In this document: piece after piece, positions 15,731-59,292 of the stretch | How the letters are laid out: each line of letters starts with the position of its first letter | Position numbering within the stretch: position 1 is the stretch's first letter | Notes under the pieces: model-generated | What the model was told of the DNA's origin: nothing | Database searches by the model: none | The model's input: only the letters and a program-made list of their open reading frames with translations | Assembly: GCA_964187785.1 (NCBI GenBank) | Contig: OZ076417.1 | Span: forward strand, 55,552,001 to 55,616,000 | Source of the DNA: Amphiscolops sp. MND2022 | Lineage: Eukaryota | DNA: 64,000 bases | Direction of reading: 5' to 3' | Program-made: the position numbers and the translations under genes

Positions 15731-15933
15731 TGTTATACGGTGTTGATTCCGAATGACCTCTACTAACCCCAAGAACTCTAGACTACCGTACAAGTTGTTT
15801 ACAAACAAACTTGAAACTATAGAATTATATTTTGTATACATTGATCGAACAATTTTGGTACAAACTAGATATACAAAATACAGTCTACCTTTTAACGCCT
15901 TCTCATATCTTAACCTAGCTTAGAAATACAACA
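15731..15933 (+). repeat. Element A 5' LTR (203 bp)
   Basis: TGTTATACGG...ATACAACA. One mismatch to the 3' LTR (15826 vs 21446). Confidence 0.97.
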
Positions 15934-16860
15934 TGGCGCAGTCAGTCAATTTTTAACAAAATTACAACGGACTTGTATTAACATGGCTGAACGAAACATA
16001 GTACCAAACCTAGAAGCAAAAGCTACGGACGGAAACCCAGTCTTTACACCGAGACAATGGTTAGAAAGATTCCGGCAATTTTGCAAACGGGAACACAAAA
16101 TAGACATTACTCCACTAATGAAAGGAGAACAAATAACCGAATGGTCCGGAAAAGAACAAACCGTACAAGAAGATTTCATATGGGGTGTGGGACCGGAAGC
16201 ACTCTATCGAATAACGAGGGCCGAATACAAAACGGAACCCGACAGCATCAAAATATTGGTATCGATTCGGTTATTCACCGAGTTCTACATGCCGAAACGG
16301 AACACTTACCACAACCGAGGAGACTTCTTCTGGGCAAAACAGACCGAAGAGGAGACACCGGAAGAATTCTGGAGACGGTTAATTGAGATTGAAAAAGAAT
16401 GTAACTTCAACACCATCTCAGCCGAAGAACTGCTAATATCGAAGTACATGACGGCAATCACCGATAAAAAACTACGGGACAAAATAATGAAAGAAAAACA
16501 CTGGAAATGAAGAAGGTAATCGAACTGATAAAGCAAAACACAAACGAAAAGAAAAACAAAAAGAACACAATTCCTGAAGCTCTGATATCGACGAAAGAAA
16601 AACACATAATAAAACAAGAACCAATACAGAGAATGGAAACATACGGAACGAAACCGAAGAACAAAAATTTCGGCAACCGACCGTGCAGATACTGTAGTAC
16701 TCCGAACTGGACACCAATGCACAAATGTCCCGCAACCGAAGTGAACTGTAACAAATGCGGTAAGAAAGGACATTACGCGAAAGCATGCAGACAGAAATTC
16801 AACAACAGCCGAACAGTGAAAAGACTAACCGAAGACGAAACAACGAATGAATTGAACGAA
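15933..16860 (+). pseudogene. gag: Element A gag (frameshifted) with zinc knuckles
   Basis: ORFs 15983-16510 and 16507-17133; CRYCSTPNWTPMHKC and CNKCGKKGHYAKAC (CCHC). Confidence 0.9.
15934..15946 (+). promoter_or_regulatory. Element A primer-binding site (tRNA-Ser-like, inferred)
   Basis: TGGCGCAGTCAGT directly after the LTR. Resembles the complement of tRNA-Ser 3' ends (TGGCGTAGTCGG). Confidence 0.7.
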
Positions 16861-16929
16861 TCATCACGTGAATCAGAAGAAGATATACAACACATAAAAG
16901 AACTCAAGCAAATCGAAGAAACAAACAAA

Positions 16930-19900
16930 CACTATACCGCGACAGTGAAAATCAACGGAATAACAAAGGAATTCATAATTGATACCGGATCCCCAATATC
17001 GATAATGCCACCGGACCAACGAATAATGAAACTAACCGAAATCCAAAAAGTGACAAACCGATACCAAGACGTAAATAAAAAACGAAGTAAAATTTCGGGG
17101 AAAGATCCCGGTGAATATCGAGTACGAAAATAACAAACAAAAGATGGAAATTCTGATAACCGAAAGAACAGACATTACACCCTTACTGGGTATGGATTGG
17201 ATGAAAGCATTTAAACTCACAATCGGGAAAATACAACTAGCCGAGAACAGCCAATCAGAGAAAGAGAGAATATTCGGAAAATTCCGAGACTTGTTTGAAA
17301 ACAACGAAACAATAAAAGATACCGAAATAAAAATCCAACTCAAACCGGGACACCACCCAGTTAAACAAAAGGCAAGACCAGTGCCGCTACATCTACAGGA
17401 AGATGTCGGAAAAGAATTAGAAAAACTAATTCGCACCCGACACCTAGAAACAATCAACGATGTGGATGAAGACTGTTTCGTGTCGCCGGTAGTAATCACA
17501 ATAAAAAGCGATAAATCAGTGAAAATCGCACTCGACTCTCGGAAACTTAACGATAGTTGCATCAAAATGAGACCTCGCCGAATATGGAAGACTTACTACA
17601 CCAAATTTCGGTAGAAATTACACGCGATCGAACAACACAACTATTTCTATCAAAGATCGATTTGGATTATGCATACGGACAAATGAAATTGTCAGAAGAA
17701 ACAAGCCGACAGTGCGTTTTCGCACTAACCGGAGGGAATTTCAGCGGATATTACAGATTCAAAAAAGGGTTTTACGGACTCGCCGATATACCCACCATAT
17801 TCCAGGGAAAAATAGACCGAACACTTGAATATTGCACACCGGCATGGTTGGATGACATAATCGTAGTAACACGGGGGAGTAAACAAGATCACGAGAAAAA
17901 ACTCTTCGACGTTCTAGATAAACTAGAGAAAGCCGGATACAGAGCAAGTAAAAAGAAATCCGAATTCTTCATGAAAGAAACAAAATGGCTCGGACACGAG
18001 ATAAACGAAAATGGAATAAAAGCAAATGAAGAAAAAATGGAAGCCATACTAAAATTGAAAGCATCGGAAAATACAAAAAACTTAAAATCATTTCTCGGTG
18101 CAATCCAATATATGGCAAAAATCTTACCGAAACTTTCGGAACGAACAGACCGATTGAGAAAACTATTGAAAAAGAACGAACCATGGAAATGGGGGCCGGA
18201 ACAAGAAACGGATTTCAACCGGATAAAACAAATGCTAACCGAAGGCCCATGTCTAGCACACTACGCAAAAGACAAAGACAATATGGTAACAACCGACGCC
18301 AGCAAAACCGGACTCGGAATTACACTATGGCAAAAACAAAATGATGGGAACATAAAACCGATCGCGTACGGTAGTAGATATCTGAACGATACCAAAAAAA
18401 AATTATTCAAGAGGTGAATAAGATCTACTCGCAGTAGTTTGGGGACTAGAAAAATTCCGATTCTATCTTTACGGAAAGAAAATATATCTATATACGGATC
18501 ACCAAGCACTGGAACCTCTAATAAAACGAAACCGATGCAACAAACAATATAGTGCAAGAATAACTCGGTGGTTAGACCGGCTTGCACATTTTGACATTGC
18601 AATACAGCATATCGCAGGAAGTAATTTGAAATTCACAGACTATCTGAGTAGAAATCCGGTAGGGGGAGCTACACCGGAAGATAATTACGATGAGGAATAC
18701 GTAATTAACATATTATCCGAACAAGCAAAATTGAACATAAAATACGGACCAATAATCGCCGATCAATCAAAATGCGAGAAAACAACAACCGAGACAACGA
18801 ACGAGACATCCGAAGAACGAAATGAGAATTGCACGCACCAATCACAATCGAATAGAACATTCCAGAACAAAAGCGGCGTGAACAAAAAAACCGAAGTGTG
18901 AAAGTTACATCCGGGCAGTCCGAAATTAGCGCGTCACAATCAAGTTGCAAATTAAATCAACAACCGAACAACATTCAAAAGAAGAAATTATCCATTTCAA
19001 ATCCGGAAATTACCGAAATGGACAGAGAAAATTTTTATCACTGGGGCGCGACACGGGAAATCATGGAGATTATACGGAAAAGAAATAAAAGCCCGGAAAC
19101 CCGCAGACTGGTCGAACTGAGAAACGCCCTATCAAAGCCGGGGACACTGAGAAGAAGATACGACCCACACACACAGCGGACGATTTTCGCACCCACCCGC
19201 CCAAACAAACGTAGCCGAGAGGAGATTGCGGAGATAGATGCGGAGCTGCTGCAGAGGTCGAACAGGTTGGGGGAGGCTACCAACCAATAACCGAAGAAGT
19301 TGAGGAGACCGGAAATCCGGAAGAAGGCGAAATCGAACCCGATCAACCTGAAACTGAAGAAGACAGTGTCATCATGAGAGGAGACAACCTACCAATAGTT
19401 GATATCAGCAAGTTTAATACAGACGGCAAGGAAACTCACTACATCCAGATAAACCATATTGTGGGAAAGTTATCCGGAAACAGAAAGATAACCAAAGACA
19501 CAAGAAAGAAAGCCGAATTTGAATTCATGCTGGATTTAAAAACCTTAATCTCAAAGACCGCGATCGATCCCGAACTCACACGAGTCAGAGCAAGTATGAG
19601 ACGGGAAGACAGAGACACAACCCCGGACGGATACAGACCGGCATTCGATAAACTCTCTATCCGGTGGGGACTAGTGTTCATGGACGATCAAATTGTAGTT
19701 CCGGTAGACCTCCGAAGACGACTACTAGATATCTTGCACTTCGGTCATGCCGATATGACAAAGATGACGGCGGAAGCAAAAATCTTTTGGTGGCCGGACA
19801 TCAACCGGGATATTGAAAACAAAGTGAAAGACTGCATCGCCTGCCTTGCATCAGGTAAAAATTTAAAATATCAATTACCAAATAGTCACTACGGAAAATT

Positions 19901-21188
19901 GAAAAAATTAACCGAACCGGGCCAAGAAATACAAATTGATTTCACCGGAAAATTACATAATAAACGAATAAACGGAGACGTCCAAATTTTAATAGCGGTA
20001 GACCGTTTTAGCAAATGGCCTACAGCAAAAATATGCAAAACCGCCGAAACGAAGGAAGTCTTGAAATTCCTAACGAATAACTTCAACCTGTACGGAATAC
20101 CGGAAAAGATCAAATCAGATAAAGGAGGAGCCTTTATATCAAAAGAGTACGAAGAATTTTGTAAAACTCGAAATATAGAAATCGAATATTGCACACCCCG
20201 ACTACATACGGGAAACGGAGTAGTCGAAAGGGCGATACAAACTCTAAAAAACATAATGCTAGCAAACATAGAAGAAGGGACGGATTTAACCGAAAGTGTA
20301 AACTGAGCACTCCGGGTAATGCGTTCCACAATACATACCGGAAAAGAACACCCTTTGAATTACATCACGGTAGAAAACCGAGAACCGAATTAACCAAAAT
20401 AATTAAAGACGGAAAAACATATTTATCGGATTGGTCACAAATATCTATTTCAGCACCAAACAAACCGAAGATCCCGATATATGTGGGCCGCGATGCGCAT
20501 GGCGAGATCACCAATCATATGATCATGGCAAAGACCAAGGTTGAAGAAAAACAAGCCAATGAAGGCCCAAAGTTGCCGAAAAAAAAATTCGGTTAGCTAT
20601 CCTTTTTCCTTTGTAGAAAAAAACCACAACAAAAAATCACTAGAAGGAAAATTTCAAAACAAAATACAAACCGCAATTGACGGAACCGAAAATACCGTAA
20701 AAACAAATACGGGAAAAATAATACACCGAAAATTTATTTCGGGACCATTGTTTCAGCCCGAGAAGAAAAAACGAAAAGACGCGCGGCATTAGTAAATGCC
20801 GAAATAACACCGAAAAATCGACACTGCCTGAGAGGGCTGGACGGAAAGTACGGCCGATGGGATGAGATACTGCGCGACATCCTAAACGGCAAGCTGAGAA
20901 TCGTAAAAAAACCGGAAGACGAGTATCTCGGAATCCGAAGACGAGGATGATGATGACGATGAAGAAATGCCGGAAGAAACCGGCAACCGAAGCTACGACA
21001 CATCAGAACGGGGAGGTCGGCATGAGCCGATACAAACCAACCCAGAAGAAGATGTGATTCAAATCCACACCGACGGCGAAATCTCACACGGCGAGAACAT
21101 TGAAAATAAAATACGGCGATCCAACCGAAACATAAACAAACCGAATAGATACGGTTGCATACCATATACTGGAAATTTTTGGGGATAA
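16930..21188 (+). pseudogene. pol: Element A pol (PR, RT, RNase H, integrase), several frameshifts and stops
   Basis: FIIDTGSP protease; LSKIDLDYAYGQ and WLDD RT; TTDASKTGLG RNase H; H..H/C..C plus QIDF/VDRFSKW/SDKG/VERAIQTLK integrase. Confidence 0.93.
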
Positions 21189-21330
21189 ACATTATTTAAT
21201 TTGTTACAGGTTCAAACTGGAACTCTCGCAAAGAAGCCCCACAACCCGTGACCACACACAAGCCTGCTGACTTTATGCCCGACGGAACAACCTCCCCCGG
21301 AACGTCGGTATTCAACTAAAGCAAGCCCAG

Positions 21331-21350
21331 AAGGGAGAGAGAGGAGGGAA
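21331..21350 (+). promoter_or_regulatory. Element A polypurine tract
   Basis: AAGGGAGAGAGAGGAGGGAA immediately before the 3' LTR. Confidence 0.9.
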
Positions 21351-21553
21351 TGTTATACGGTGTTGATTCCGAATGACCTCTACTAACCCCAAGAACTCTA
21401 GACTACCGTACAAGTTGTTTACAAACAAACTTGAAACTATAGAATAATATTTTGTATACATTGATCGAACAATTTTGGTACAAACTAGATATACAAAATA
21501 CAGTCTACCTTTTAACGCCTTCTCATATCTTAACCTAGCTTAGAAATACAACA
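21351..21553 (+). repeat. Element A 3' LTR (203 bp)
   Basis: Direct repeat of 15731-15933. Confidence 0.97.
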
Positions 21554-21971
21554 GCGGGATCATCACCCAACAAATCAAATCAAACACTTCACTAAGGCCA
21601 GCGTGAAATCACGCTCGTGAATTAGCGTGATTTTCTAGCCAATTAGAATGCTCCGTGACATGGCGTGATTTTACAGCGGAATATGATGGTTTTGAAGTAA
21701 CTATTCTAGATTTCAAATATTGTCACTTCATATCACCAAAGTTCCGACACAGAAATCATCAATAATGTTTTTCGTGCCAAAAAAACCGGAAAGTTGAACC
21801 GAATTCTGTGATTGTTTCGATATTTTGTGCGTGAATTTAGCGTGATTTTCGATTCAGAATAGCGTGAATAAGTGCGTAATTCTATGCTGCCCTATTCACT
21901 ACTGTCAGTCACATATAAATGGCAAGTCATTCACATATGAAGTTATATTATTGTTATCCAAGTCATGAGAT

Positions 21972-22723
21972 CAGAAAGCAATTAAACAGAGAAATTACAA
22001 CCATTTGTATGCTTGGATCTCTTTCACTATATCCCCCTACAGCAAAAAGGGGGGACATAGTGAAACGCTATTAAATACATGTATTGCACATTCTAATTGC
22101 GCAGATCTGCTCTTATCTAACAACGCTTCTGATTGGCTGAGTGGGGATTTTGATAATAAGAACCAATAAAAAGTGTCGTTAGTTATGAGGAGATCAATTG
22201 ATTGACAGAATAGCATGAGAGATTAGCCAATAGGAGATAGATATAAATGAGCCACAAACATTCGTTTTGTCTAGGGGGACATAGTGTAACGAGTGATATA
22301 GGGGGGGGGCATAGTGAAAGAGATCTCAGAAAGCAATTAAACAGAGAAATTACAACCATTTGTATGCTTGGATCTCTTTCACTATATCCCCCTACAGCAA
22401 AAAGGGGGGACATAGTGAAACGCTATTAAATACATGTATTGCACATTCTAATTGCGCAGATCTGCTCTTATCTAACAACGCTTCTGATTGGCTGAGTGGG
22501 GATTTTGATAATAAGAACCAATAAAAAGTGTCGTTAGTTATGAGGAGATCAATTGATTGACAGAATAGCATGAGAGATTAGCCAATAGGAGATAGATATA
22601 AATGAGCCACAAACATTCGTTTTGTCTAGGGGGACATAGTGTAACGAGTGATATAGGGGGGGGCATAGTGAAAGAGATCTCAGAAAGCAATTAAACAGAG
22701 AAATTACAACCATTTGTATGCTT
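21972..22723. repeat. Tandem array S-M-S-M-S (period 355/354 bp); M is a ~312-bp TIR element
   Basis: 43-bp S at 21972, 22327, 22681. M (22015-22326, 22370-22680) is bounded by GATCTCTTTCACTAT / ATAGTGAAAGAGATC. Confidence 0.9.
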
Positions 22724-26651: not shown

Positions 26652-27491
26652 CGAAGATTCAAATCAATTCAACAATAAATTGGTCGAACGAACAGGTATA
26701 TCAACTGTATCTGGTCAGACTAATGGTACAGAATGATCGTGTGTCAATTAGCAATGCGTGGAATGTTGTCAGTTATTCAGGTAATCAGATGAATGAATCT
26801 CTGGTCCGTCCGTCCGTCCCTCCTATATATAGTTTGGGAGGGATGACGGCCAAAATACTGCGCGTCATGTTACTAATAATAGCACTCAGTAGGGTTGCGT
26901 CATAGTGACGTTATTACATCAAAGGAATTTTGTCAGTTAAGCCGACAAGGTGTTATGTAGCGACTTTATATATTCATAACTAATAATTTACAGGTTTTTA
27001 TGATCACTTATTGTAAAAATACAAGTCAACTCCAAAATTAACCGTAGTGGACTTTACGTCCATATGGCTACAGACTAATACTACGCTGGCAGCGTATTGT
27101 ACAATTTCCACCGCGGTGGACATTCAGTCCGCGGAGCTACAATAATTAACTGCAATGTGATTGGATAGCTTGTCCAGTGATGCATGTATAATTGATTAAA
27201 TGATGAGTTCATTCGAACTCGTTTCCTTCCGTGTTGTGTACACGTACTTATTGTCTCTAACAATTTACTGCAAATTTACATTGAATGAGAATACCACAGC
27301 AATTTCCTGATATAACAGGCACGGATTGTTTATTAATTATAACAAATTGTAATAAGGTTAATGTTTGTTGTGGCTCGGTGGTTTGAAGGTCCTATAAGTT
27401 CAGATTGGAAGAACTCCTGGTGGTGGATTTGTGTTGTCTCCTTCCACTAAAAGCTGATAATAGTTGCCGTCACAGGCGGCCGCCTGCGACA
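26012..27491 (-). repeat. Element B 3' LTR (1480 bp)
   Basis: Direct repeat of 40000-41479, about 44 substitutions by eye, no indels. Confidence 0.97.
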
Positions 27492-28209
27492 CTCCCCTAG
27501 GGACAAAGAGCACTATCCTTTGGTCCATTCCTGCAAGGTATGCCTCGCGTCTTCGCATTCTCTCGCCATACGACTCGCCACGATAAGTCGTAGCCTCTAA
27601 GTAGCCCAGTACTGCAGTCTCTTTTATCTGTTCTTAATTTCGTCCACAGACGATACAATCTCCATATTGCGCTGTGTTGGGCTGTCCGCAATGGGCTGCC
27701 ATTCTTACACTTATACCTTGAATATGGGAATTCAGAGGAAGAGGGTGATTGGTCTGTTGTTGTTGTTGTTCCTTGAAGGAAAGGCCATAATACTGTCCTC
27801 GCTCATGCGCTGGTGGCGACAGGGGGTGTCGATCTGTGGCCGTAGTTGTCCGCACTGGCTAATCACTGGACTCCCGGTCCTTTGGGCCTGCCCCCATGAC
27901 CAATGGGTCTGCTTGATCGTCACTTGACTGCAACAAGCTCTCATAGTCATCCCAAGGAAAGTCTGGGAAGGCACTGTCTGAGCAGCCTGAAAGGTCAGTG
28001 GTCATTTGCAGTCCACCAACAGTCGGTTGTGTTTGAGCGGGCAATTGGCGGTAACATGCGATCACCTCAATGTCACTGTCGTCCGACGTGCTGATTGTCG
28101 CATCTACAGATTGTATATCCACATTCTTTTCTTCTCCTGACGAAAAGTAGCTGGGGCTAACAGGAGGGTTGACTAGGTCGTCCATTGGGAATTGTATGTT
28201 CATCTCCAT
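27400..28209 (-). pseudogene. Element B ORF3 (sense, 270 codons, 2 in-frame stops), overlaps PPT and 3' LTR
   Basis: Single frame 28209 to 27400 with stops at 27859-61 and 27634-36. DSDIEVIACY, CGQPN..GDCIVCG and VPRGVSQAAACDGNYYQ..PGVLPI are conserved in C ORF3. Confidence 0.8.
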
Positions 28210-29359
28210 TCGGTATCGTTTTAGGAGTAATTTCTTAGCTATTCTGAATAGAAGATAGGAGAACTGATTTTCACATTTAAGTTTGGCAGAATGATCTCTT
28301 CTTGTCCTTCAGACCTTTGGTCTTTCCCCGTTTCGCGGGAAAATTTAGGCGGGAGACCTTCTTCAGAAGTTTTAAGAATATTTCCCGTAAATGTTTCATT
28401 TTAGTAATATTTGTCATTCCGTAATTTTGTTGATGAACGTTAGACTAAGTTAATAGCCTCTCGAGTCCTTTTGATCTATTTAATTAACAACTAACGAGGT
28501 GTTAACCACTGCTATCAGTGTTTATCATCGCTCATTGTCGGTAAATAGTAACGCCATCAAAGACCATCGGTCTACCCGGCCACATCAACTAAATTGACCA
28601 ATGGGATAATGATGATGAATTAAGGTAAAAAAGTTGATGAAATGAGTAAAATGACGATTTCATCCAAGTGAAAACTAATCTATGAAACTAACTATTTGAT
28701 GAAAGGAAATCAAAGCATGAACTTCTCGACTTCTCTGGCAGGTTGCATCCACGATAAAAGGATTGCAATTATGTAATAGTACAAATGATGCATGAAATAA
28801 TAGTAGGTAACTTCAAAAGAAATGTTTTACTTTTAGGCCACGACATCCGGTACAGCTTCAGGTATTTAACCGTCTTGGGCTTTCCTATATCTAGTGAATT
28901 GTTTTACTTTGATTCCAGTCTTGTTGACAGTGAGTAGTACTAATGATAATACCAACAATCTATGTATCTGTGTCTGTCCTCAGCGTCCCACCAACCACTT
29001 GATTAACTATTTGAATTCTCCATTATACTTTCCTCCTGAACAATCCTTCTTCCAATTTACTTCATTGCCGACTTTGTGTCCCTACAGCCACAAGAGAGTG
29101 TATTGTATGGCGAAATTTCATTGTGGAAAAAGAGCGCTGAGAGGATCGGTATTATCACAGTGTAACTGGTAACCTTGGACGAGAAATTTCTGCTTTTCCG
29201 TCATGGAAATAACATCAGGTTGGTTCTTTAATTTTGTTCAGTCCAAACATGATCAGGGTTCAAACTAAACTATGTTTTACTTCCTCCATCGTGAAATATT
29301 TTCAATCAAACTTTGAATGAAACAAATTTTACTTCCGGAAGTTTTGAAAAAGCGGCAAG

Positions 29360-32300
29360 ATGGATTTGTTTGCTGGAAGTGAACCGCGTAAGTTTACTTC
29401 TTTCCATTTAGGCAAAGAATCAAGTGTCCAACCACCCCAAACGTCCCCTGAGACTGATAATACCACTGAAATTCCGCATGTGGCCCAATCCACCACTGCA
29501 ACTGTACCTCTTGGGACAGAAGATAGTGACACAGACCGTGCTAATGCACAGCAGTTAGCTGAAGAGATTGCGCTACCCAATCTACTGCTTTCTGCCATCG
29601 AAATCATTGAAGAAAGTTCCTCTCAAGCTTCAATGGAGTTAAACTCAGGCGGCCAGTCTCCGGCAGTTTTCGTCACCGAGCCGGACCCAATGTCCCAAAG
29701 GCCTCAATCACCCACTATTCACCTTCGCTATTGAGGCTCCTTGTGACCGGAAACAGCAGCTCTAGAGAAAGTCTCCAAGCATACGTCGCCCGCAAACTGG
29801 TGGATTGTGAAGAAGAGGAAGAAACAAAGGCGATCGGCGAACCTGGACCTTCTACTAGACATGTCTGCGGAATCGGAGGGCCTACAGGCACAGAAATGTG
29901 TCTGTAGCGATTTAGCTTGCAGATGCACTGTAATGTAGCACACAAAACATTCAGTCCAAAACAAGTGTGAGCGATGCAATCACCATTACTCCTGCTGCGA
30001 ATTTGTCAATTGGTACTCCTGGTCTCTCTGCTGCTACTCCGGTTGTCATCTTCATCGGGCCACCAGGACTCAACGCAAGTCAGACTGAAAGTGACCGCTC
30101 ACGTAGCTCAGCGAAAAGGCCTCGGGTAGGTAGCAGTTCAACTTCCGTGAATCAACCTCCCCCTAAGTTTGGGCTGATGTCCTCATACCTTATTCAACAA
30201 GCTCCCTCTAGACAAGAAATCGATTCGACTAAAAGCTGCAATACCAGGAGTCAAGATGAAATCCCCAGTACTTCTGCAGTTGAGCCAGGGTCTGATTTTG
30301 AAACCGTTTCTGATCCTGTTGGTTCCAACATTGCTCAAGCTTTGGACCCCAGGCCTGAGCGCATTTGCCCCATACAGGTTTCAAGGAACCCCCCGAAATA
30401 CCACTCTGAAGCCCAGTAGAAGAGCATTGATAAAGGAGTATTTTGCTGAGGCTGATCCGTCTTTCTTCCCCACGGGACATCCCGTCATTGCTTTTACTGA
30501 GGATCAGGTCAGCACAGTCTTGAAGGTTGTGGCCGAAGCGACTGTCAGATCCACTCAATCCATGCTTGAGAAAATCATCAAGCAGGCCAGTAAACTAAAC
30601 TTGGGACCTGGAGGCGATAGATCGTCACCGCTGAAAACCATGGGTACTAGCAAGTCCAAGCGCGGGAGTACAGGCTCCGTACAATACAATGACACTAGCG
30701 GAGCTCTCCGAAGCGACGATGAGTTCTCAAGCATTGGGTACTCTTTTGAAGGGCGAGAGCACCAGGAGGTAGCTGCACCACCAGTTTCGACTGACAGGCC
30801 TAGTTGTAGCCGTGCCGACCCAACGTCCTTCCAGTCTTCCTTTTTTGCCGGCAGTCCTGGTGAACAGACCTTGGCTTCGCTGAAAGCTGAAGCAATAGAA
30901 GACCGCTCCAAACTATCGCGTAACAAGCGAGGTCGTTTCTCTCAGGCCAACACTACTCGTGGTACTCGAAGAGAAATAACTCGGTCATGCAAGATCATGA
31001 AGGTGGCCTACTTCAAAGGCATGGAGTGGACCAGAACTTTCGTCTCCGGACCTGTCGACACGAAGTGGAATCGTTACAAATTTTATTGTCAAATTGTAAA
31101 GCCAACATTCCCATTTACAGGAAGGGAGCGAGAGAGATTTTGCGTCACCACTCGACAGGGAAACACCTCCGAAAGGACCAAAGGTGGAGGTACGAGTACC
31201 TGTACAAGACTGACCCCGTGACCAAAACTCGTATCCATCAAGTCAGAGGAAAAGACGGTAAGGTACTGAGCCCTTACCAGCTGGAACTAGAGCTCCCCAA
31301 ATTCATCGATAAAGAGTTAGTTGAGATTGGTCCAAAACTCCCCTTTTACGACGATTACCTCTCTGGCATGGACTATATGGCTTCATCATCCGACAATAGA
31401 GCCAGAGTTCAACTTTCCATGCTGGGTCGATTTCTCCCAACTTACGGCGACATTGAGGTACTGAAGCGATTCTGGAGCAACGTTGGGGTCATCGTTAACC
31501 ATCAAGCCTTATTCACTGACTTTGACTGGAGCAAAGAAAGGTTGACTGTAAGTATCCTTCAATATTCAGTCCATCATATTAGGATTTAGTATAGAACTTT
31601 CGGTCCTCGTTATACAATTTCTGTCTTTCTTTTTAGGTCTTGTTCCACCATCTGTTCCAAGAAGTCTTGAATGACATTGTCACTTCCATCAATGCCAATG
31701 GCGAATACTCCCTTGAGTTTGCAAGCGATGGAATCTTTCTGTTGGTCTTTTTGCGGTGTTGGAGAGGAGACAAATTGTGCCGAGTCTTTGTCAAACGGAC
31801 TGGGAGACTGCAAGGCCAGAGCGACGCTGAGATCTGCCTAATCTCTTTCATTATGGGAGCAATCTCAACTAGATCTAAACTGATCAGTTGTACTGGTAGC
31901 AGCGCCCGCACAGTCCAACTTTTGGACCACAGCCCTTACTGTTCTTTCAGTGTGCAAAGCCCTCCCCGCTTCGAAGAACTGACCCTTTCTCAGCTTATGC
32001 ATCGGAAAAGTCAGAGTGTTTTTGGACGAGTCGACTTCGTCTCCACACTGCGCTATCTAGTTGTGTCGCTCGGAGGCAGTCTTGAGCTGGGATGGGTTTT
32101 GCTTTCTCCCGAACTTTCGAAGGAATGTATTATCTTGTAATCACCTACTTCAGACAATTTGGACCTTTGGTGTAAACTGCGGCAGATAGATTGATCCCCT
32201 TTTGCTTTACTAGGCCATTCGCACTTGTCAATTGGATGCCAGTGGACTTCCTGCATTGTGTCGCGAACAATTGGACCAAGGTTCACACGTATCTGAGCAA

Positions 32301-33664
32301 AACTGTTCCTTTTCAAGATATGCAAGGTGTCCGCAAACAGGTATTAATCTTATTTCTCTTTAGGTCCTAGAGACTACAGGTCCTTATCGGTTCTAATCTT
32401 GGTTGTTGTAGGCACAGAACCTAGAGTGGTCAATCGTGTATGACAGTCTTTTCCCCAGTCGGCTCGGGTTATTCTACCGTCTAATACAGGACTGTGAGTG
32501 GACGTTTTTGTAAATCGTTTTCTGTTACATTCTCATTTTCATTGTTTTTTCTTTCCAGATACCAGCAGCTTTACCCTCAACCTTAAGTCTCGGCGCGATA
32601 GAGGATTTCATGTCTACACGGAATTGTGTCAATTCCTATTCAAACTCGCCCGCAGGTGTATTCAATCTGGTAGTCTCCCCGCTGAGCACTACAACCCAGG
32701 GATTCTTAAGTGTTCCTTTCCCGAAGCCACAGCTCTTATCGTTGGAGACTTCATCACTAGGTCCGAGCTAGGGGCTAGACTCGAGGTCGGTTGCAAGCAG
32801 AAGGCTGAGAAGGAGCTTGACGAAGACAAGAACCAGGGCCTTCGTCTTGAAGAAGTGACAGCAAACAATGTAGAAGAATGTGGTCGATCAGCCCGAGGGT
32901 ACGTCGCTTACTTACTTGGAGCAACACAAAAATTCAGCCGATTCACGTCTGACATAGTAAAGGGTCTCGACTCTTTTGACTTGGAAATTTTACTGGTGGA
33001 CCCTATGGAACAGGCCCCTTACTGCTGCAAGCAGCTGTTTACCAGCTTCAGGCTTCGTGGAGTTGTTGATTCATCAGAGGAAACTGTGTACGCTGAGGAA
33101 TACCTTTCTTTTGTTGACGAGCTGCGACGACTTCATCCAGATATGCAACAACCTAAGCTTCTGATAGCCGATGCTGTTGATTTCATTTCTGGCCAAGAGG
33201 CCTTGAAGACCAGACGTCACCTAAACAGGATCTTCTCTCTCAGTTGCATCTGCCTTGACGAGCTAAGATTCAGCTTCCCTGGTGTCAAATTTGGCTCAGT
33301 GAAAACAGACGAACCAACCTGCAGTATGTTTGACGTTGTGGCACCTATTCAGTCGTTCCTTGATCACGGCCTCCGCGGAATAGATATTTTGACTTCTGAT
33401 TCCTCCATAGCCGGTTTCCTCACTCTTGAACGGTCTTTTGGAACCACAGGACTCGAAAGCACATACAGTCCCTGGGACTAAATTGATAACTTTGGGCGCC
33501 AACAAATTAGGGATGTCTCCAATGTCTGTCGACGCACAACCACAGGGGCAGAATCAAGTCGGACAAGTCCTGCCAAATCACCAAAAAGAGTCCGCATATC
33601 CCCTAGCAAATCTACATCCCGACGTGATGTTCCTGAGACCGAAGAGGCATTAATGTCTACTTAG
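29360..33664 (+). pseudogene. Element B antisense, intron-containing gene (BED-like zinc finger, hAT-like region)
   Basis: Start MDLFAGSEPRKFTSFHLGKE; C-x2-C-x16-H-x5-H at 31087-31166 after correcting one frameshift; GT-AG introns 31548-31636, 32341-32411, 32494-32558; homologous to C 57191-52922. Confidence 0.85.
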
Positions 33665-33862
33665 TAAGCCTAGTACTTCAAGTGGTGGATCCGCTAAGCA
33701 ATAATTTTACTTTGTATACGTTTATGTATTAGCCTTTCTTTTATGTATATATTTTGTTGCATTTATTTATACCAGTTATTCACGTCATGCTTGTTGTCCT
33801 CTAGTTAGTCTGGTCCCTGCTATAGTATTTATTTGAAGAGGGGCAGTAATTTACATATCTGT

Positions 33863-36800
33863 CTAGTATGTATTCATCAGTAAAGTTGGGTGTGGGGTTA
33901 GGATGCAGGTTATATTTTCCTCCCCTAGGGTTTTCATTTTGTACAATCACATCATCATTTTCATCATCTAATACTTCGGGCACGATAGTATTGCTCCCCC
34001 CTGATGATAGTTGGTCATCAAGTTCGTCATTTGTGCGTTCTGAATCACTTTCGTCAGGCGATTTAAAATTTTCATTTTCTTGTGGCTCGGTGGACCGAAG
34101 GTCCACATCGGTGAAAATTTCGTCCGGCATGCTGACGTCATCCACAACACCATTTGAAGTGTCTGTGGTATCAAGACGCGTAGGATTTGAGGTGTTTTCA
34201 GTTGAATCGGGAAATTCTCCAAAATTGGTTTCCCAAGTGATAACGTATAGGTCATCTTGTGGAATAATGATTTCGTCGTCCGGTTGCAAATTGCCTTCTG
34301 GTCTGAAATCCTGTAGGACGGTGTTCGGTTCGTATTTGCGCAGTCTGATACGGTGTAGAATTTGCGTTTCGTTGGAATTTAGTTTTCTAACTATATGATT
34401 TTTGTTCGGCAAAACCTTTTCCACAATGTAGGGTCCTGTCCATCGGTATTCGCGGAATGGAATTTTCAATCCTTGGTGATCAGCGATGGGTTGTATTATA
34501 AAACAATAGTCGTTCTGTTTCAAAGGAGCCGCTTTGGCCTTTCGGTCGTAGTATTCTTTGTACTTCAAGTACGATTGCATGATGTTTTTCTTTGTAGAAT
34601 CTAGAAGTATCTTCGTGCAGGGCTGAACTTCGTCTGCAAAATCAGTAGTCGGTAGGACCGTTGGGTTTGGATTAAGGCCCAATTTAAGATCCAATATATT
34701 ATATGGGATTTTTCCGTGGAAACTTCTGGATGGTTCACATGCCAGGGTGGCGTGATGTGTCGTATTGTAATTCAGTACAGCAAACCGCAAGTAATTGTGC
34801 CACTGTCGCCTGTAGTCCCCTCAGGTCATCTTGAGATTCGTTTTGAGACTAGCATGAGTTCGTTCTAGTTTACCAATTGTCTGCGGATGTTTTGTAGTTG
34901 CGCATTTTATTTAGATTCCCAGAATTTGAGGTACTTCGGCAACTAATTTGGACGTAAAGGCTGTCCCCTTGTCTGTAATCAAGGTAGTAGGCAAGTATGT
35001 ATGTTTGGTCATTATGTCTATAATGACCTTTGCCGTGTTTGTGGCCGGAGCGTCGGTGACTGGATTTGCAAAAAGATATCGTGGAAACACGTCCATTGCG
35101 GTTATGATATTTTCGTACCCTCCACTGGGAGGCAGGTTCGGTAACAAATCAATTTGCATTGCATCCTCCGGACCTAAGTCCCATTCGGGCAAATTTAGCA
35201 ATTCGGGCGTTATGGATGAATTTGGAATTCTCTTATCTTTGATGCAAGTCTCGCAGCCTTGAACCCATTTTTTTAACAATTTTTGCGATGCCAGGATAGT
35301 AAAATTTATGGCGCATTTCTATGAGCATCTTGGATATTCCAGGATGTTTATTAGCTTTGCCATGTAGGGATTTAAGTATTTCTTGGACCAGATGTTTTGG
35401 TAATAGGACTTGATTGTATTTGACTGCTGCTGTTTCGTCGAAGTACTGTCTGGTAATAATATCATCCGTGACGGACAGTCGGTCTATTCGGGGTCAGTAA
35501 TGTTGGTAGCGGTTGTCTTGTAATAAGATGGTCTCTGAGGAGCTTTCTTTCAGTATTTTTAAGCGCAATTGTTGCAGAATGACGTCATTGTTTTGTTCGA
35601 CTTCTAGAGTTCATGTATGATAGTTTTTGAAGTGTGGATAGTTTTTGAAGATAGTTTGTGGTAATCACTGTTGTGTGTAGAAAAATTTTCAAATGAAATG
35701 TCAGGTAATTGATTTGCTGGATTATCCCTAGCGTCTTTTTTACGTGGTAAAATTTGTTCTTCCGTCTCGTCATCATCCTCTGTACAGAAGATTTGCTCCT
35801 CTTCCGAAACTCCGGCCGATTGGACGTTTAGTTCAATCGGTGTTGTGGGGATATCTTCTCTAAATCTGAGGATTAATTTCTCTTTTGGAGAGATCTCTAG
35901 ACGTGACAGGTAGTCAGCTGCTGTGTTGTTTTTGCCTGGGATATGCGCTATGGTGAAATTGAACTGAATGACATAATCGCAAGCGTTCCATAGTGTTGGC
36001 GGAACAATTTTTGTCCGAAAGAATCTTGTGACGGACTTGTTGTCCGTTGGTATAATCACCGGTTTTGGGGTTCCCCAAAAGATGTGTTCGAATTCCTTAA
36101 AGGCAAAGAAAATTGCCAAGCATTCTTTCTCATCGATGGACATTTTCAATTGGGTAGGACTAAAGCTCTTGGATCCATAAGGTACTGGTGCGAAAGCTTT
36201 CCTCGAAGAAGTGTACTTCTCGAGTGGATCGTCCTCGATGAGAACTGCGTACCCTGCAGCCGAAAAGCTAGCATGTGTCATAAGGGCTATTTGCTTGTTC
36301 GGTAGGGGCTGTTTGAGTGCCAGTTCGCAACATCGGTCGAGAGCTTTGTTTATTTCGGTGAATTGTTCCAAGATGTCCAGTGTTACCAGGACTTTTTCAT
36401 CTTTGGTGAGCAGTTTGAAAAACGGTGTTAGTTTTTCTGATAGTCTCAGGATGTAGTTTCGATATTAGTTCAGAAATCCTAAGTAGCGCTGTAGTGCTTT
36501 CTTAGATTTCGGGAATTTCGTATTTTCTAGGATGTTTTGGACCCGTGGTCTCTGTGGTGGTCCGCAGGAGTGATAGTACGTCCCAGAAAATCAATTTCCG
36601 TGGCACCAAAGTGACATTTATGCATGGTAAGCTTTAGACCAGCTTTCTGAATGCATTTGAAAGTGGCCCTGAGGTTGTTGATAAGTTGTTCGGCGTCATT
36701 GGCGGCAATACCAATGTCATCAACTTACTGGGCACATTGGTTTGCTTTGATGACTTTGTCCAAATATTCGCGCATAAAGCTGGAAAACGCCAATAGGGCT

Positions 36801-52670: not shown

Positions 52671-52921
52671 CGAGAACAATATATTGCAAAGTCACTGTCT
52701 TGCTAACTGCCCTCAAGGACGTGTATTTTAATTGGGACAATTCTGACTTTTTGAAATGAATAACTGTCGACAAAGCGACTTGGTTGCGTACAATACAAAA
52801 ACCACTGTAAACAATTGCGAAATAAATGATTAACAACAAGAAATAAATACAACAAACAAATACAACTAGTCTACAGAATACAAAGATACAACTATACGAC
52901 CAAAATGTACACTATGTATAA

Positions 52922-55900
52922 TTAGTTTTTACTACTACTCTGGCGAAGACTCTTGGCGCTTTGACTAATTTCATCTCCTGATAACAGACTCGTGGGACGC
53001 GTGTGCTCTTTCGAAGAGCGAAGAGTAGTGGGGGAATGCTGGACTTCAGATTCGCTTGCAGGTTTTCCTTTCTTAGGCTTTGTCTGAAACTTTCCTTCTG
53101 GGTCAAGCTTAGACAAAATTTCTGTTCGCCCAAAGTAATCCAATCCCAACCAAGGGTCGTACGTATCACTTAGGGCACTGCGTCCGAAGGTAGACTCGAG
53201 CTCGAGGAAATCGGAAAATCGGAGGCATCACTAGTGGCAGTATCAATATAACCAACCACGTTACTGAAACACGACTGGACCGGCAGGACGACATCCACTA
53301 GCTCACTCGTAAGGTCCTCAGTATTGTCGCTGCCAAACTAGACACATGAAGGGGGTGGAATGGTTCCTCCAAACAAAGGAAAGCAAGTTTGAAACTTCGC
53401 AGCAACAACGGACGAGCATGTAACAAGGCCTCTCCTGCGATGAAGTCAATGGCATCAGGAATCACAAGGTTGGGTTAGTCAAACTCAGAATATTTGACCA
53501 GAAGTTCGTCAAGAAATGACAAGTACTCTTCTTGTGCAAGGGACTCCTGGTCCATTGAGAAGTAACCTTGCAGTCTGAAAGTAGTGAAGAGCTTGCTGTA
53601 GCACTTGGTTGCAAGAGTAAGTGGCAGTTTCAAAAGAATTTCCACATCGAAGCATCCGAGTCCTTGAGCGATAAGCGTGGTAAAGTCAAAATGACTCCTG
53701 GTCTCCTTGAAGAGATGAGTCACATAACTCCTTGCAACTCTGCCGTAGTCTTCTTTAGCTTTACTTGTCAGCTCTTCCAGGGTCACCTTCTCTCCCTTCT
53801 CATAGTGCATATCAACTTCTGCCTTCAACTTACACGCATGGTCCAGTTTCAGTCCGAATTTTAGTTGATTGAGGAAGACGGTGACACTCAATGCGGGAGC
53901 AACATATACATCTAAGTTGAGGATTGCATCAATGCCATCCTCAGAGGGATGAGACTTTGAAAGAACCACCCGTTTTGCTAACTATGCGTGGAAACCTCGT
54001 TCTCGACGTCCGCTGAGGCTAAAAGAGAAGTTGTAGTATCTAAACATAGACTGAATTTAGTATGAATGCTAATGCGAAGGAAATCCTACAATCTACAGGA
54101 CAGTAAAAGTCAACAACACCGGAAGTCACAAATGGAGCATTGTATTGGAAACTGATATTATGCCAAGGTAAACGGAATTCTCTGAGTCTAAAGGTACTGA
54201 AAGATGTCCACCATTAAAAGGCGTTGGGATACTAACAATCACGGACCAACTTGTGGAAGAGTTCCAAATGTCAAGTGAAGAAATCGTCATGGATGATAGA
54301 CCACTCAAGAGTCTGTGGCTAAAATATGGGAATGCATTGCAAAACTTAAAAGAAGGACCGAGAGTACACCGGACGGAGTATGCCCTACACGATTTCGCAC
54401 GCCTTGCATTTGTTGCTGGACTGCATGGGCCGTCAAGTAGGTGGTGACAGATTTCCAGTGTGTGATCAACTCTTGGCAGAGAGCAGGAACGGAAGAAACG
54501 TCAAGTTTGCTAGACTTTATGGCCTAAAACACGAACAGAGAGTCGCTTAGCCATGCTAATTATAGTAGGGGATGTATTACAAGTGTGCCTTTGTACAATG
54601 ATGAGATTCTTTCTACGGAGCGAGACAAACTACAACCTTTGAATTTTCTAAGCATATGGACCGAAGGTAGAGAAGTACTAACTTTGTCCAAATCTGGGGT
54701 GAATAAAGTCCACTCCATTTGGACACTCCCTCCTAAAACGATCACGAGATGCTGCAGGATTGAAAAAAGTCCAAACACGCTGTTACTGTCCTTGTGCATC
54801 AGCTTCTTGATGGCAAATTCGTCAAAACTGGCAGGTCGTTGGACACCATGCTTCGACAATAGGGAAATGTCCAATAATTGCACAATGTGGAAAGAGCCCC
54901 CTGAACAACACACTAGATCTGCTTCCGTCGATATGGCAGCCAGGAATGTTGAAAGCAATCGCAATTCGGCAGCAGTCAGTCCACCGGTACGGCCGGTCCG
55001 AAGTACATAAACTCTGCACAACTCATTTTGCTTCCAAAACCGCACGTGCAAATGGAGGAACACGCCCTGTAGTTCAAACGCGACAGAGAACTGTCTTTCG
55101 GTGAGAACATCATTTCCCAGGCTGGGGATCATCTGGTGGAACAAGTGATGGAACAACATCTGAAATACAATCATGCAATTAGTCACGAGAGGACAGACGG
55201 CTATTCGCAAGAACACAAAATATGCTCACGTTACTGGATGACTAATACCTCATGAATATATGAAAGTTGCAATTTGATTGATTTAGATATTCACACACCG
55301 TTGCAGACCTAATGTCGACCAAACTAATGAAGACTACTTACTGAGATCCGAGTAGTACTCCAATCGATGTGCCAACACAGTGCCTGATGATTGACGACGG
55401 TCCCTGTGTGCTGCCAGAGGGTACGGAGAACCATATAGTCTCCTGACAGCGGGAGATAGTGGTCCAAGATAGAAATTTGCCATGTGGTCAACCTCTGCCA
55501 TAGCTTGGTCATAGAAGAGGAATTTCTCCCCGATGTCCACTAGCTCGGCTTTGATGAAGGGGGGAGTTTGCGCTGCAGTTGGTAGTTCGTTAAAAGCTTA
55601 CCATTTTGGCACCTGACCTGGTAGCGTGGCCTCTTCGTCAATAGGTCCTCGGTGGTCAAGCATTCGTACCTCCACTTCTGATCCTTGCGGAGAAGTCTGT
55701 GGCGTAATGTCGTAAAATTTCTTTGGGACCTTTTGCCCGGATGGAGATGTTGCACTTGCAGATCTGGTAGTAGATTTTGTGCTTGTTCCACTTAGGATCT
55801 ACAGGCCCGGATACGAAAAAGCAAGTCCATGGCATTGACTCAAAATACTTTGCCTTCATAACTCTCCCAATCCGCTTGCGAGGCTTGGATGGTCTGTTTG

Positions 55901-57191
55901 ACTTGTGGGCAGAACTTGTCTTCTTTGATGATTTCCTCCTCTCCCTGCAAGTTTCCTGTCGGACATTAGCTAAACTTTGTGCTCCCGGACTGGTACACTC
56001 CATAGTTGATGGTGTAGACCCAGGGTCTCTGCTCCCGTTGGCAACCGCTGTTGGTGAAGGGGCTAAATTGACCGAAGACTGGAAGTCATGAGGCGACTCA
56101 GGATCGATAGTGAAACCTTAGCTGCTGCTCTCCTCATGTACATCAGTGGTCAAAAACGAATTTGCATCGCCCTCAGTATCTGTGTCAGTGATATAACTTC
56201 ATTGCGAACACCCCCTTGGGGGGGGGGGTCTTGGAACGATCAAGCAAACTCAATTGACTGGCTTTCTGGACCACACTATTGACCAAAAAAAGCTCGGGCA
56301 CTCTCGTTTGCCACGATCTGATGGATACTTGTAATTTGCTCTTGGTTCAATGCAACCGTCGGATGTCCAGGGGGCAATTCAATAGGATTGGTCTCTGCGA
56401 AACATTGTTTTTTAAAAGCACGGCTAGTACTGGACAAAGGAGTTGGTTGGCTGGCAATTGGGGCTTGTGTTATTTCAGACTCATTACTGGAATCTTGGGG
56501 ACAGAGGATGTCAGTTCCGCGTGTAGGGCAGTAGAGAGCCTGAGCAAGAGAAGAGCGTGTTTGCAATGCAGTTTCTATATCCATCTCAATAAAGGATTCA
56601 TCTTCTGTATTGGACCGATAGTCTATTCTCTCAACTCCTACGTTCGATTCTTCTGTATTAACTTTTCCATCTTCTGTGTCCTTTCCCCAATATCTATTTT
56701 GCCCAAGTTGTCTTCTGATCTACAAGTCGTTTCTTTGGACGCTTGTTCGGAGCGAGCTAGGCCCGACGACTAAATGAGCAGGAGTGGGCGCTTCCAAGAA
56801 AGTAACCTCTGGCAGGTTATCGTTGGGGAATTCAGTGAGTGCTAGAAAGTTGGCACCAGGGGTGACGGATACCGAATCACTCACACTTGCCTTATCACGG
56901 TCTGAAGACTGTTCCTCTGTTATGGCTGGTGTCGGCTCCTCAGCTGCCAAAGACTCCATTTTTCTGGTAGAATAAGCTCAGCAGCTTTTTGTCTCACTGG
57001 CTGAAATTAATTCATTTATAGAACTTAAGTCTGCTGGTCGTTCGACGACTTCGACTTCAGGAGCTTGCTCGTCTTGTTGAGACTTGTTTTCCGTGTATTC
57101 TGCTATTGTTTGACTCGGTTGGTCACTCATTTCTTTGCCTAAGTGGAAAGAAAGAAATTTACGCGATCCACTTTCGCTAAAAAAAATCCAT
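52922..57191 (-). pseudogene. Element C antisense, intron-containing gene (homolog of B 29360-33664)
   Basis: Start MDFF-SESGSRKFLSFHLGKE; QICKCNISI...LRHYATD..HLRKDQKWRYE; introns 55341-55160, 54388-54319, 54236-54040; LESTFG..TYDPW..DYFGR near the end. Confidence 0.85.
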
Positions 57192-58546
57192 CCGCTAAAG
57201 AAAACTTTCAAAAGCAAGCTCATTATCTGTTCTTACCCATGGTTAATTATTTCATGATGGAGGAGGTGAAAATTAGTCAATGGGAAGCCCTGATCAAGCT
57301 CAATTTTGGCAGAACAATTTAAAAGAACCAACCTGATATTTGTCTATATTGGCAAAGAGAATCTGTGGGTTCAGCTACCGCTATTGGGCTGGAATACTGG
57401 GATCTGCAAATTGGAGATTGCTGTTGGGAACTTTGCCGCTCTGAACTCAGAAACAGGATGGACTTGAACTTAGGTCGCAATAGGTTGGACAGACTAACAA
57501 TCCGGACGATGCAAATCTGCGGGCGATGCTGCTACTACGACAAAAGCTGAAGATGTAGTTCTCTTTTGAACCAGACGGATAATTTGCTACAGGGGAATTG
57601 TAACAGGAATTGAGAATGTGAAATTTTTCATAATAGTTAAAACAATACAACTGTTGTGCTTCTGGCTGTAATAGTTAGTAAACTGGCTTACGTCGCTATA
57701 TATCATATTCGACCAGAAGTCCCACTTTCCCGAATCTACTACTTACCACTACTGTTGACTCTCAAGACGAACAATTCTTTGTTTACTAAACCCTTTCAAT
57801 TCATTACACATCAAAGGACGTCGTGGCTACATGCAAGTAAACTAATTGTTATAAAGTTTTTATTTCTTTGCATACTCCTTTATTGCGTTTTCAGTGTTAC
57901 GGAACCTGCCAGTAATGTACACTAATCCGATATTCCTTTTATTACACTTTTGTTTCATGTTTCTATGCTGATATAACCAGCACTTTTTATCAACATTTCA
58001 TATAATTATGCCATTCCATTACTCCATTCAGGATTTACTTGAATTTTCATTCTTTTAGTGAACCACTCTGATTGGACAGTTGGTCGAGGCTAGACGTAGA
58101 GACCGACGGTCTTTGAAGATACTTCACTGTTAAGAATGAGTGATGATAAGCAATCTCATCACTCATTGTCACCTCTTTATTAGTTATTATAACCACTTGA
58201 AGCGATCTCAAGGACTTAACAACTTTACGGGCGGCTTATCATCAAAACCTATTTGGTGAAGGAGTTTGCTTAATACGGAAAGTCGAAGAATTCGATGGAG
58301 GAAGCGGGTAAAAATTTCCCGAACTCATATTCCCGCGAATTTTGGGAGTCTCGACCTGAAGTCGATTGGACCAAGACTGCCATTCTTCTCAAAAGTCACT
58401 CTACGAATCAGTCGACTACTCTAAACCTTCAAAATTGCCAAGAAAGTTATCTCGAAAAGACTTCAAGTAGAAATGTCTCTACAGTTTGCGGTCGAAGACC
58501 TAATCGATCCCTTAGTTAACTGTCGTACCTCTCCTCAAAAAAGGAT

Positions 58547-59292
58547 ATGGAAGTAGACGACCCACCGACGGTTAACGAGATCGAGAATTCTGACAGCGAT
58601 ATAGAAATAATAGCTTGTTTCAAAGAAGTGCCAGTCACAAGACCGATGGGTATAGCAGGTCGTTGCATGACAACTGAAATCCCAGGCGACATTGACACTC
58701 TCTTCATCCTAGAAGGACTATACGGCCAGTCGACGAAGGACGACTCAGTGCCTTCTAGTGAACTAGTTGAATTAGTTCTGGGGAATCACCCACCTACCGA
58801 GTCTATGAAGCCAGAGTATCAACAGCCAATTGCAGCGTGTAGCCAATTGGAACCTATAATCGACTCACAGCTGTCTTCGCCTATAAAAGATCAGGGCCTA
58901 ATTTTACGTATTGGTCTAACCCGTGGGAAGACGACCAACCGTCCTAACAACCCGAAAACCCTCATATCTGGATAGTAGCTGTTAGCGCCAGTGGGATTTG
59001 CGGAAACCCGAACCAAGTTACCCAAGGAGACTGTATAGTGTGCGGATTAACAGCGGAAACAAACAGGGAAGGAATTACATTCGACTATCTTGAAAGAACA
59101 CATATTGCAGGAGAGACCTATGTAGCCCGCCTCAGGAGGAGAAATGCATTCCAAGCAGGGAAGCATGCTGGGTTTTTTATATTAGTCCCGGGGGGAGTGT
59201 CGCAGGCTACCTCCTGCAATGGTAACAGGTACCAAGCCGCAGTCAACGATGTTAACAACATGCCTCTACTTCCCGGAGTTTTGCCACTGTAA
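58547..59292 (+). pseudogene. Element C ORF3 (one frameshift), overlaps PPT and 3' LTR
   Basis: DSDIEIIACF; CGNPNQVTQGDCIVCG; VPGGVSQATSCNGNRYQ..PGVLPL*. Stops 95 nt inside the LTR. Confidence 0.8.

Follow-up and report, generated by a model that had tools for sequence, protein, structure and literature searches.

A putative SUMO-binding accessory protein encoded across the polypurine tract and U3 of an abundant Ty3/gypsy family in a probable acoel genome

The window (the whole stretch of 64,000 nucleotides analyzed here) contains two LTR retrotransposons, B and C, with a third sense ORF (ORF3) that runs from the region behind pol through the polypurine tract (PPT) into the 3' LTR. That ORF3 is a protein-coding gene is nearly certain. 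Its sequence features suggest that the product may be a nuclear SUMO-binding accessory factor, expressed from an internal promoter and likely relieving the silencing of its own family, a reading that we hold to be about evenly poised between right and wrong. The window is part of contig C9 of the host assembly (G000), which has a size of 1.07 Gb. The two carriers and their parts are the following.

41479-26012, minus strand: element B, with LTRs of 1480 bp that are 97% identical and a 5-bp target duplication
40000..41479, minus strand: 5' LTR of B, in which gag starts; 97% identity to the 3' LTR
33801..40651, minus strand: decayed gag and pol of B, with zinc knuckles, protease, a dUTPase-like stretch, reverse transcriptase (RT), RNase H and integrase
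27501-27492, minus strand: PPT of B, translated as P-R-G in ORF3
27491-26012, minus strand: 3' LTR of B, 1480 bp, TG..CA, with the final codons and stop of ORF3 in its first 92 nt
46161-60867, plus strand: element C, with LTRs that are 93% identical and a 5-bp target duplication
46161..46887, plus strand: 5' LTR of C, ~940 bp shorter than the 3' LTR, with 93% identity between the two
59187-59197, plus strand: PPT of C, directly before the 3' LTR
59198-60867, plus strand: 3' LTR of C, with the PPT immediately 5'

Both elements have a PBS starting with TGG and a PPT, as is characteristic of Ty3/gypsy LTR elements, and Pfam matches in the window pieces and in one open genomic copy show gag followed by pol in the protease-RT-RNase H-integrase order of the Ty3/gypsy type. 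No env-like ORF was present in the open genomic copies examined. A search with pol listed only records without a name, none of which would place the element in a gypsy clade. The carrier family is very abundant and recently active, with LTR pairs that are 99.4% and 99.9% identical in two genomic copies. The dUTPase-like stretch is located between protease and RT (37366-38061 in the window; residues ~335 to 447 of the L108 pol), and its Pfam match is weak (E value of 0.016 to 0.027). The 5' LTR of C is missing ~940 bp that include the TATA region (46493-46499 compared to 59527-60475 of the 3' LTR). The gag gene starts inside the LTR, ~140 nt past the predicted start site, and continues across the PBS (40651-39962 in the window; 1669-3447 in L108), and coding sequence is found at both LTR ends, namely the ORF3 tail and ~215 gag codons. 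Since the TATA box and Inr-like motif of the B LTR appear only ~660 to 710 nt into it, the ORF3 overlap falls within U3, taking the start site from these motifs.

27400..28242, minus strand: ORF3 of B, from the conserved ATA (IAKK) to the U3 stop; first ATG at 28209
58434..59292, plus strand: ORF3 of C, from ATT (IAKK); first ATG at 58473

A sequence-only reading of the window had described an ORF that passes through the PPT and ends inside the 3' LTR in both elements, and we found the stop 92 nt (27400, B) and 95 nt (59292, C) inside the LTR. The alignment that it reported at the protein level was recovered (45% over 102 amino acids, E value of 1e-25), the DNA of the two ORF3s sharing no more than a single 35-nt match where the PPT borders the LTR, and the motifs that it listed are present; one of these residues, the Cys of CG(Q/N)PN (C177), is kept in the window copies but lost in distant relatives. 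Two of its statements had to be amended. The window frames had been taken as ORFs, but both are interrupted. In B, in-frame stops occur at 27861-27859, within a short stretch read in a different frame from its relatives, and at 27636-27634; in C, the frame shifts near 58520-58540 and again near 58840-58900, and it is also closed by a stop at 58945-58947. The starts had been placed too far downstream (28209 and 58547), as homology begins at 28242 in B and at 58434 in C. The SIM-type motif, the likely non-AUG start, the predicted promoter and the antisense partner gene described below had gone unnoticed in that reading. The ORF3 of B is 80% identical over 283 amino acids to an open genomic relative.

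An intact ORF3 of ~285 codons is found in many genomic copies. In a DNA search of G000 with B, 19 of 30 loci were open from IAKK to the LTR stop, and in three protein searches of G000, each with at least 141 to 150 matches, a stop-free match was found in 130/150, 144/150 and 140/141 among the matches listed. Open copies are thus common, and the accessory gene that had been proposed is real. To quantify selection, a codon model was applied to 14 open copies, hand-picked as one per apparent subfamily and chosen for an open frame and the IAKK anchor (copies without the anchor were dropped). The resulting ω was 0.119 for the whole ORF3, 0.096 for the N-terminal extension, 0.064 for the N-terminal motifs, 0.186 for the linker, 0.057 for the C-terminal domain and 0.129 for the part inside the LTR, all of them rough values because synonymous sites are near saturation. 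For comparison, ω was 0.024 in the integrase and 0.049 in the last exon of an antisense gene (see below). A value of ω = 1 was rejected with a 2ΔlnL of 51 for the extension, 126 for the LTR part and 661 for the C-terminal domain. More than one codon was used at 53 of the 57 invariant columns other than Met and Trp, with codons at the LTR edge among the fixed ones. Conservation by cis-signals alone, which had been named as the competing explanation, holds only for the PPT and the opening codons of the LTR, positions at which a single codon is fixed; the synonymous excess is large even inside the LTR, and the purifying selection on the frame, LTR part included, indicates that cis-signals are not the explanation. 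The sequence P0079, from short contigs, had no more than 46% identity to any sequence scored in G000, so that the ORF3 family probably reaches beyond this assembly. With 534 clusters at 50% identity in a full HMMER scan, many of them fragments, this family is a sizeable one; it was unannotated wherever checked, with no annotated name among the members read from 14 clusters.

29360..33511, plus strand: antisense gene of B, decayed, intron-containing, head-to-head with ORF3, with a C2H2-type zinc finger (weak match)
53117..57190, minus strand: antisense gene of C, decayed, with an approximate upstream end

Throughout the clade, including L109, L128 and L135, a conserved antisense gene separates pol from ORF3. 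In open copies, it has at least three exons with GT-AG introns and stands head-to-head with ORF3 at a distance of ~1 kb; its introns survive because the gene is antisense to the genomic RNA. At least the last exon was found beside ORF3 in 17/17 subfamily representatives as well as in B and C, and the integrase in 16 of the 17 representatives, within the stretch fetched. Searches against Pfam, PDB profiles and the ESM Atlas gave no family match for this gene. Its motifs give us the impression of a presumably hAT-like gene; a hAT-transposase origin was unsupported by the same three resources.

The two genes of this cassette evolve differently from pol. Compared to L024, most subfamilies have an ORF3 protein that is 35 to 71% identical, against 82 to 99% for the integrase, and the antisense gene, like ORF3, diverges much faster than the integrase. 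Trees of ORF3, the antisense gene and the integrase had 2 to 4 of 10 splits in common between pairs (4/10 for ORF3 and integrase). At fourfold sites, L024 and L091 differ at 16 of 103 positions in the integrase versus 47 of 79 in ORF3. Several subfamilies (L108, L143, L141, L142 and L149) combine 98 to 99% identical integrases with ORF3 proteins that are only 61 to 71% identical and a different synonymous divergence. In several pairs, the integrase is less diverged at synonymous sites than ORF3, which indicates that pol and the cassette recombine. Host-facing accessory proteins often diverge fast; here, the fast divergence of ORF3 is partly due to recombination rather than adaptation.

28261..28602, minus strand: predicted internal ORF3 promoter of B, from motif matches
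28602-28596, minus strand: CCAAT-like motif of B
28562-28555, minus strand: CTTTGA (TCF-like) of B
28342-28331, minus strand: E2F-like site of B
28294-28289, minus strand: Inr-like TCATTC of B
28265-28261, minus strand: DPE-like AGTTC of B
58330..58414, plus strand: E2F-like, Inr-like and DPE-like motifs of C, upstream of ORF3

The region upstream of ORF3 was compared in 16 sequences, the 14 representatives plus B and C. ATTGG and CTTTGA are kept there, an E2F-like site is found near -100 in 13/16, an Inr-like YCATT stands 50 to 56 nt before the start codon in all 16, and RGWY follows at +28 or +29 in 14. We take YCATT with RGWY at +28/+29 to be the Inr/DPE arrangement of TATA-less promoters. 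The TATA box of the LTR is also followed by TCATTC (B and L109). ORF3 is thus likely expressed from an internal promoter rather than by splicing of the nef type, as far as motif conservation can tell. The other way to read these motifs, YCAT plus CAG as a branch point and splice acceptor that would yield ORF3 from a spliced LTR transcript as for nef and env, concerns expression only and seems unlikely to us. A CAG does occur 24 to 31 nt upstream of the start in 16/16 sequences, and the ORF3s of LTR elements are described as usually spliced (PMC5408684), but RGWY keeps a constant distance of +28/+29 from the Inr-like motif, the 12 bases preceding the CAG are mostly purine-rich (8 to 67% pyrimidine) while most apparent acceptors of the antisense gene are pyrimidine-rich by eye, another AG intervenes in 9/16 and the phase from CAG to start varies, so that no upstream coding exon fits.

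Coding-type conservation of ORF3 starts 10 to 13 codons ahead of the first ATG. The codon at its onset is ATT or ATA in 16/16 open copies and has a strong start context, position -3 being a purine in all 16 and position +4 a G in 15; the leader contains no ATG, codon periodicity begins at the ATT/ATA codon and in-frame stops are found upstream of it in 8/16. The extension begins I-A/S-K/R. Judging from these features, a non-AUG (ATT/ATA) start is likely and would be the simplest reading. The extension was also considered as an antisense or shifted-frame exon and this was rejected, as the five other frames have stops in 2 to 15 of the 16 sequences and the sense frame in none. A conserved poly(A) signal was looked for directly after the ORF3 stop, and none was found.

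28060..28150, minus strand: acidic N-terminal patch of B with two SIM-type motifs; antiparallel D-D-S-D-I-E-V-I at 28083-28060
27403..27860, minus strand: conserved C-terminal region of B, with candidate zinc ligands, a helical hairpin and the PPT/LTR-encoded tail

The N-terminal two thirds of the ORF3 protein are acidic, have low prediction confidence and are likely disordered according to the models. What distant relatives retain best of the N terminus is a SIM-type motif rather than the acidic linker. A SIM-type motif was found in 49 of 65 proteins against 2.2 expected from shuffles, and in 13/13 divergent relatives (25 to 37% identical) that keep the N terminus against 0.02 expected; the copies are related, so that these counts are not independent, and for the divergent relatives the pattern was widened after inspection to allow P and four N-truncated matches were left out. 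In these relatives, the motif consists of two hydrophobic residues, any residue and another hydrophobic one, followed by S-S/D and an acidic run, the third position being freely variable, as in SIMs. It has the hydrophobic core with serine and acidic flank of phospho-SIMs, examples of which are given in PMC5646861. Of the two motifs in the B subfamily, only the antiparallel one (D-S-D-I-E-V-I) fits, the parallel one being degenerate. We consider it probable from this pattern that the ORF3 protein binds SUMO. The host has a SUMO gene, whose first coding exon (L161, 690-881) is 98% identical to P0252 and 83% and 80% identical to SUMO of two acoel worms, so that the host is likely an acoel. In animals, SUMO is required for piRNA-guided transcriptional silencing.

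The C-terminal part had been read as a Cys-rich, possibly Zn-binding domain. Its conserved Cys and His residues agree with this: C123, H165, C188, C191 and C249 (P0001 numbering) are kept in 94 to 100% of 63 proteins, and all five in 9 of 17 divergent relatives. The five residues are candidate zinc ligands; the models, which are of low confidence, gave a best Z of 4.0 in fold comparison. The structure model is weak (mean pLDDT of 55 for the C-terminal region and 42 for the full length), the only well-modeled part being a helical hairpin near residues 195 to 228. The C-terminal domain has 9 K/R versus 13 D/E, and a basic DNA-binding surface is not evident. Sequence comparison gave no Pfam family at an E value of 10, no PDB match below 0.39 and no informative match in the ESM Atlas, and neither viral nor metagenome contigs yielded relatives. 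Foldseek (PDB, BFVD) and VIA-align gave nothing above background, and with models of such low confidence a new fold is neither shown nor excluded. An E7/E1A-type Rb binder was rejected, as LxCxE was found in 0/65 proteins. The earlier view that ORF3 is not env was supported, since hydropathy exceeds 1.6 over 19 residues in only 2 of 63 proteins (median maximum of 0.96).

The SUMO-binding accessory factor could work as follows. A short mRNA would start at the Inr-like motif ~50 nt before the ATT/ATA codon, with the E2F-like sites favoring dividing cells. Initiation at AUU/AUA would add a basic extension of 10 to 13 residues, and leaky scanning to the AUG would give a second form. The acidic, serine-rich SIM, probably phosphorylated by CK2, would dock on SUMO, while the C-terminal region may fold around zinc and provide a second contact. 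The outcome would be an element whose transcription is higher or unsilenced. Against this, the SIM is silent on direction, and ORF3 could instead recruit silencing or tether integration.

It is rather unlikely, in our view, that ORF3 is a Tas-like transactivator whose zinc domain binds the LTR or internal promoter and whose acidic N terminus activates, the SIM being modulatory as in HCMV IE2. Its predicted internal-promoter layout does resemble that of foamy viruses (PMC6950176), the linker has acidic stretches with bulky residues and conserved arginines lie on the second helix, but the C-terminal domain is net acidic, distant relatives retain the SIM better than the acidic linker and the zinc finger of the antisense gene, a weak match itself, is the more obvious DNA binder. 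We regard as quite improbable an adaptor for integration or nuclear targeting that anchors the pre-integration complex at nuclear bodies or at chromatin rich in SUMO. A SIM next to a small folded domain would suit such a tether, E2F-like sites would give S-phase timing and the Pfam matches of pol include no chromodomain family, but the partly different histories of ORF3 and integrase fit poorly with a tight partnership between them. ORF3 might also bring SUMO-dependent repression onto its own family and so cap its copy number. Repressive chromatin proteins, PML among them, typically have SIMs, and self-control strategies of transposable elements have been discussed (PMC6719617), but the abundance of the family, with at least 141 to 150 matches per search, and its LTR pairs of 99.4% and 99.9% identity make this self-limitation very improbable.

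In HIV/SIV and MMTV, the nef and sag ORFs overlap the PPT and U3. The term nef-like, used in the sequence-only reading, stands for the position of ORF3 over PPT and U3 but not for its protein, and the ORF3 transcript is probably unspliced. A membrane-associated immune modulator of the nef or sag type can be dismissed as extremely improbable, since the shared position, an acidic cluster and a proline-rich stretch are outweighed by an MG (myristoylation) start in 1/63 proteins, a hydrophobic segment in 2/63, the lack of a Pfam match and a host that is likely an acoel and would lack the adaptive-immunity targets.

Extra ORFs near the 3' LTR, accessory genes that reach U3 and anti-silencing proteins are known; the ORF3 protein family is unclassified. 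Foamy viruses have accessory ORFs between pol/env and the 3' LTR, an internal promoter and a bel2 that extends into U3 (PMC6950176). Compared to their tas/bel2 (bet), ORF3 belongs to an env-less Ty3/gypsy element with one sense ORF and an antisense spliced gene, its promoter is only predicted and neither sequence nor fold comparison gave a match. The plant Ty3/gypsy elements Grande (gene23), Retand and RIRE2 also harbor extra ORFs that are conserved in the interval from pol to the 3' LTR, with gene23 being antisense, nuclear and driven by its own promoter (PMC7264820). The present case differs by its animal host, the divergent gene pair, the introns of the antisense gene and a sense ORF3 that enters U3 and carries SIM-type motifs. 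LTR elements of bdelloid rotifers have a dUTPase in pol and family-specific ORF3s other than env (PMC5408684), a combination also seen here, if with a weak dUTPase match (E value of 0.016 to 0.027); the rotifer ORF3s described there are GDSL esterases, DEDDy exonucleases or membrane proteins, none of which our ORF3 matches. Troyka was excluded by its termini as given in PMC12440569. Resemblance to the SIM peptides of HCMV IE2 and PML (hydrophobic core, S-S/D and acidic run; PMC5646861) is confined to the motif, with no homology.

Plant VANDAL elements are known to encode anti-silencing proteins (PMC6719617, PMC13547354, PMC12859917); their accessory protein VANC is proposed to lift silencing from the transposon family that encodes it (PMC6719617, PMC13547354). 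VANC comes from plant DNA transposons, has a MAIN-related fold, targets DNA methylation and shows no similarity to ORF3, for which such a role is conjectural. Along these lines, we tentatively suggest, as a possibility that we would rather doubt than expect, that a retrovirus-like cassette of two genes with a divergent internal promoter includes, in its non-AUG, U3-locked ORF3, a SUMO-targeting anti-silencing factor that helps the family flood the genome, which would be an animal counterpart of VANC that interferes with transposon silencing at its SUMO step. Since the ORF3 protein is small, abundant and under selection and its SIM is well conserved, it is a directly testable candidate in an animal. 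A layout of the complex-retrovirus kind (predicted internal promoter, ORF into U3 and antisense regulatory gene) has been reached here by an env-less gypsy lineage. Titles and abstract openings contained no literature on this element, protein or cassette, subscription journals and repeat databases being outside the scope of that search; gypsy abundance is reported in an acoel genome paper, the accessible part of which gives no ORF detail (PMC6451197).

Other repeats were observed as well. A further element at 15731-21553, with direct repeats of 203 bp (99.5% identical) and strongly A-rich ORF pieces, lacks both ORF3 and the antisense gene; a fragment related to this element is present at 279-1289. 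A near-perfect tandem repeat of ~355 bp, with just over two copies, is located at 21971-22723. Elsewhere in the genome, ORF3/LTR fragments are arranged in tandem with a period of ~2.3 kb (L034-L038, C6 4.895-4.908 Mb).
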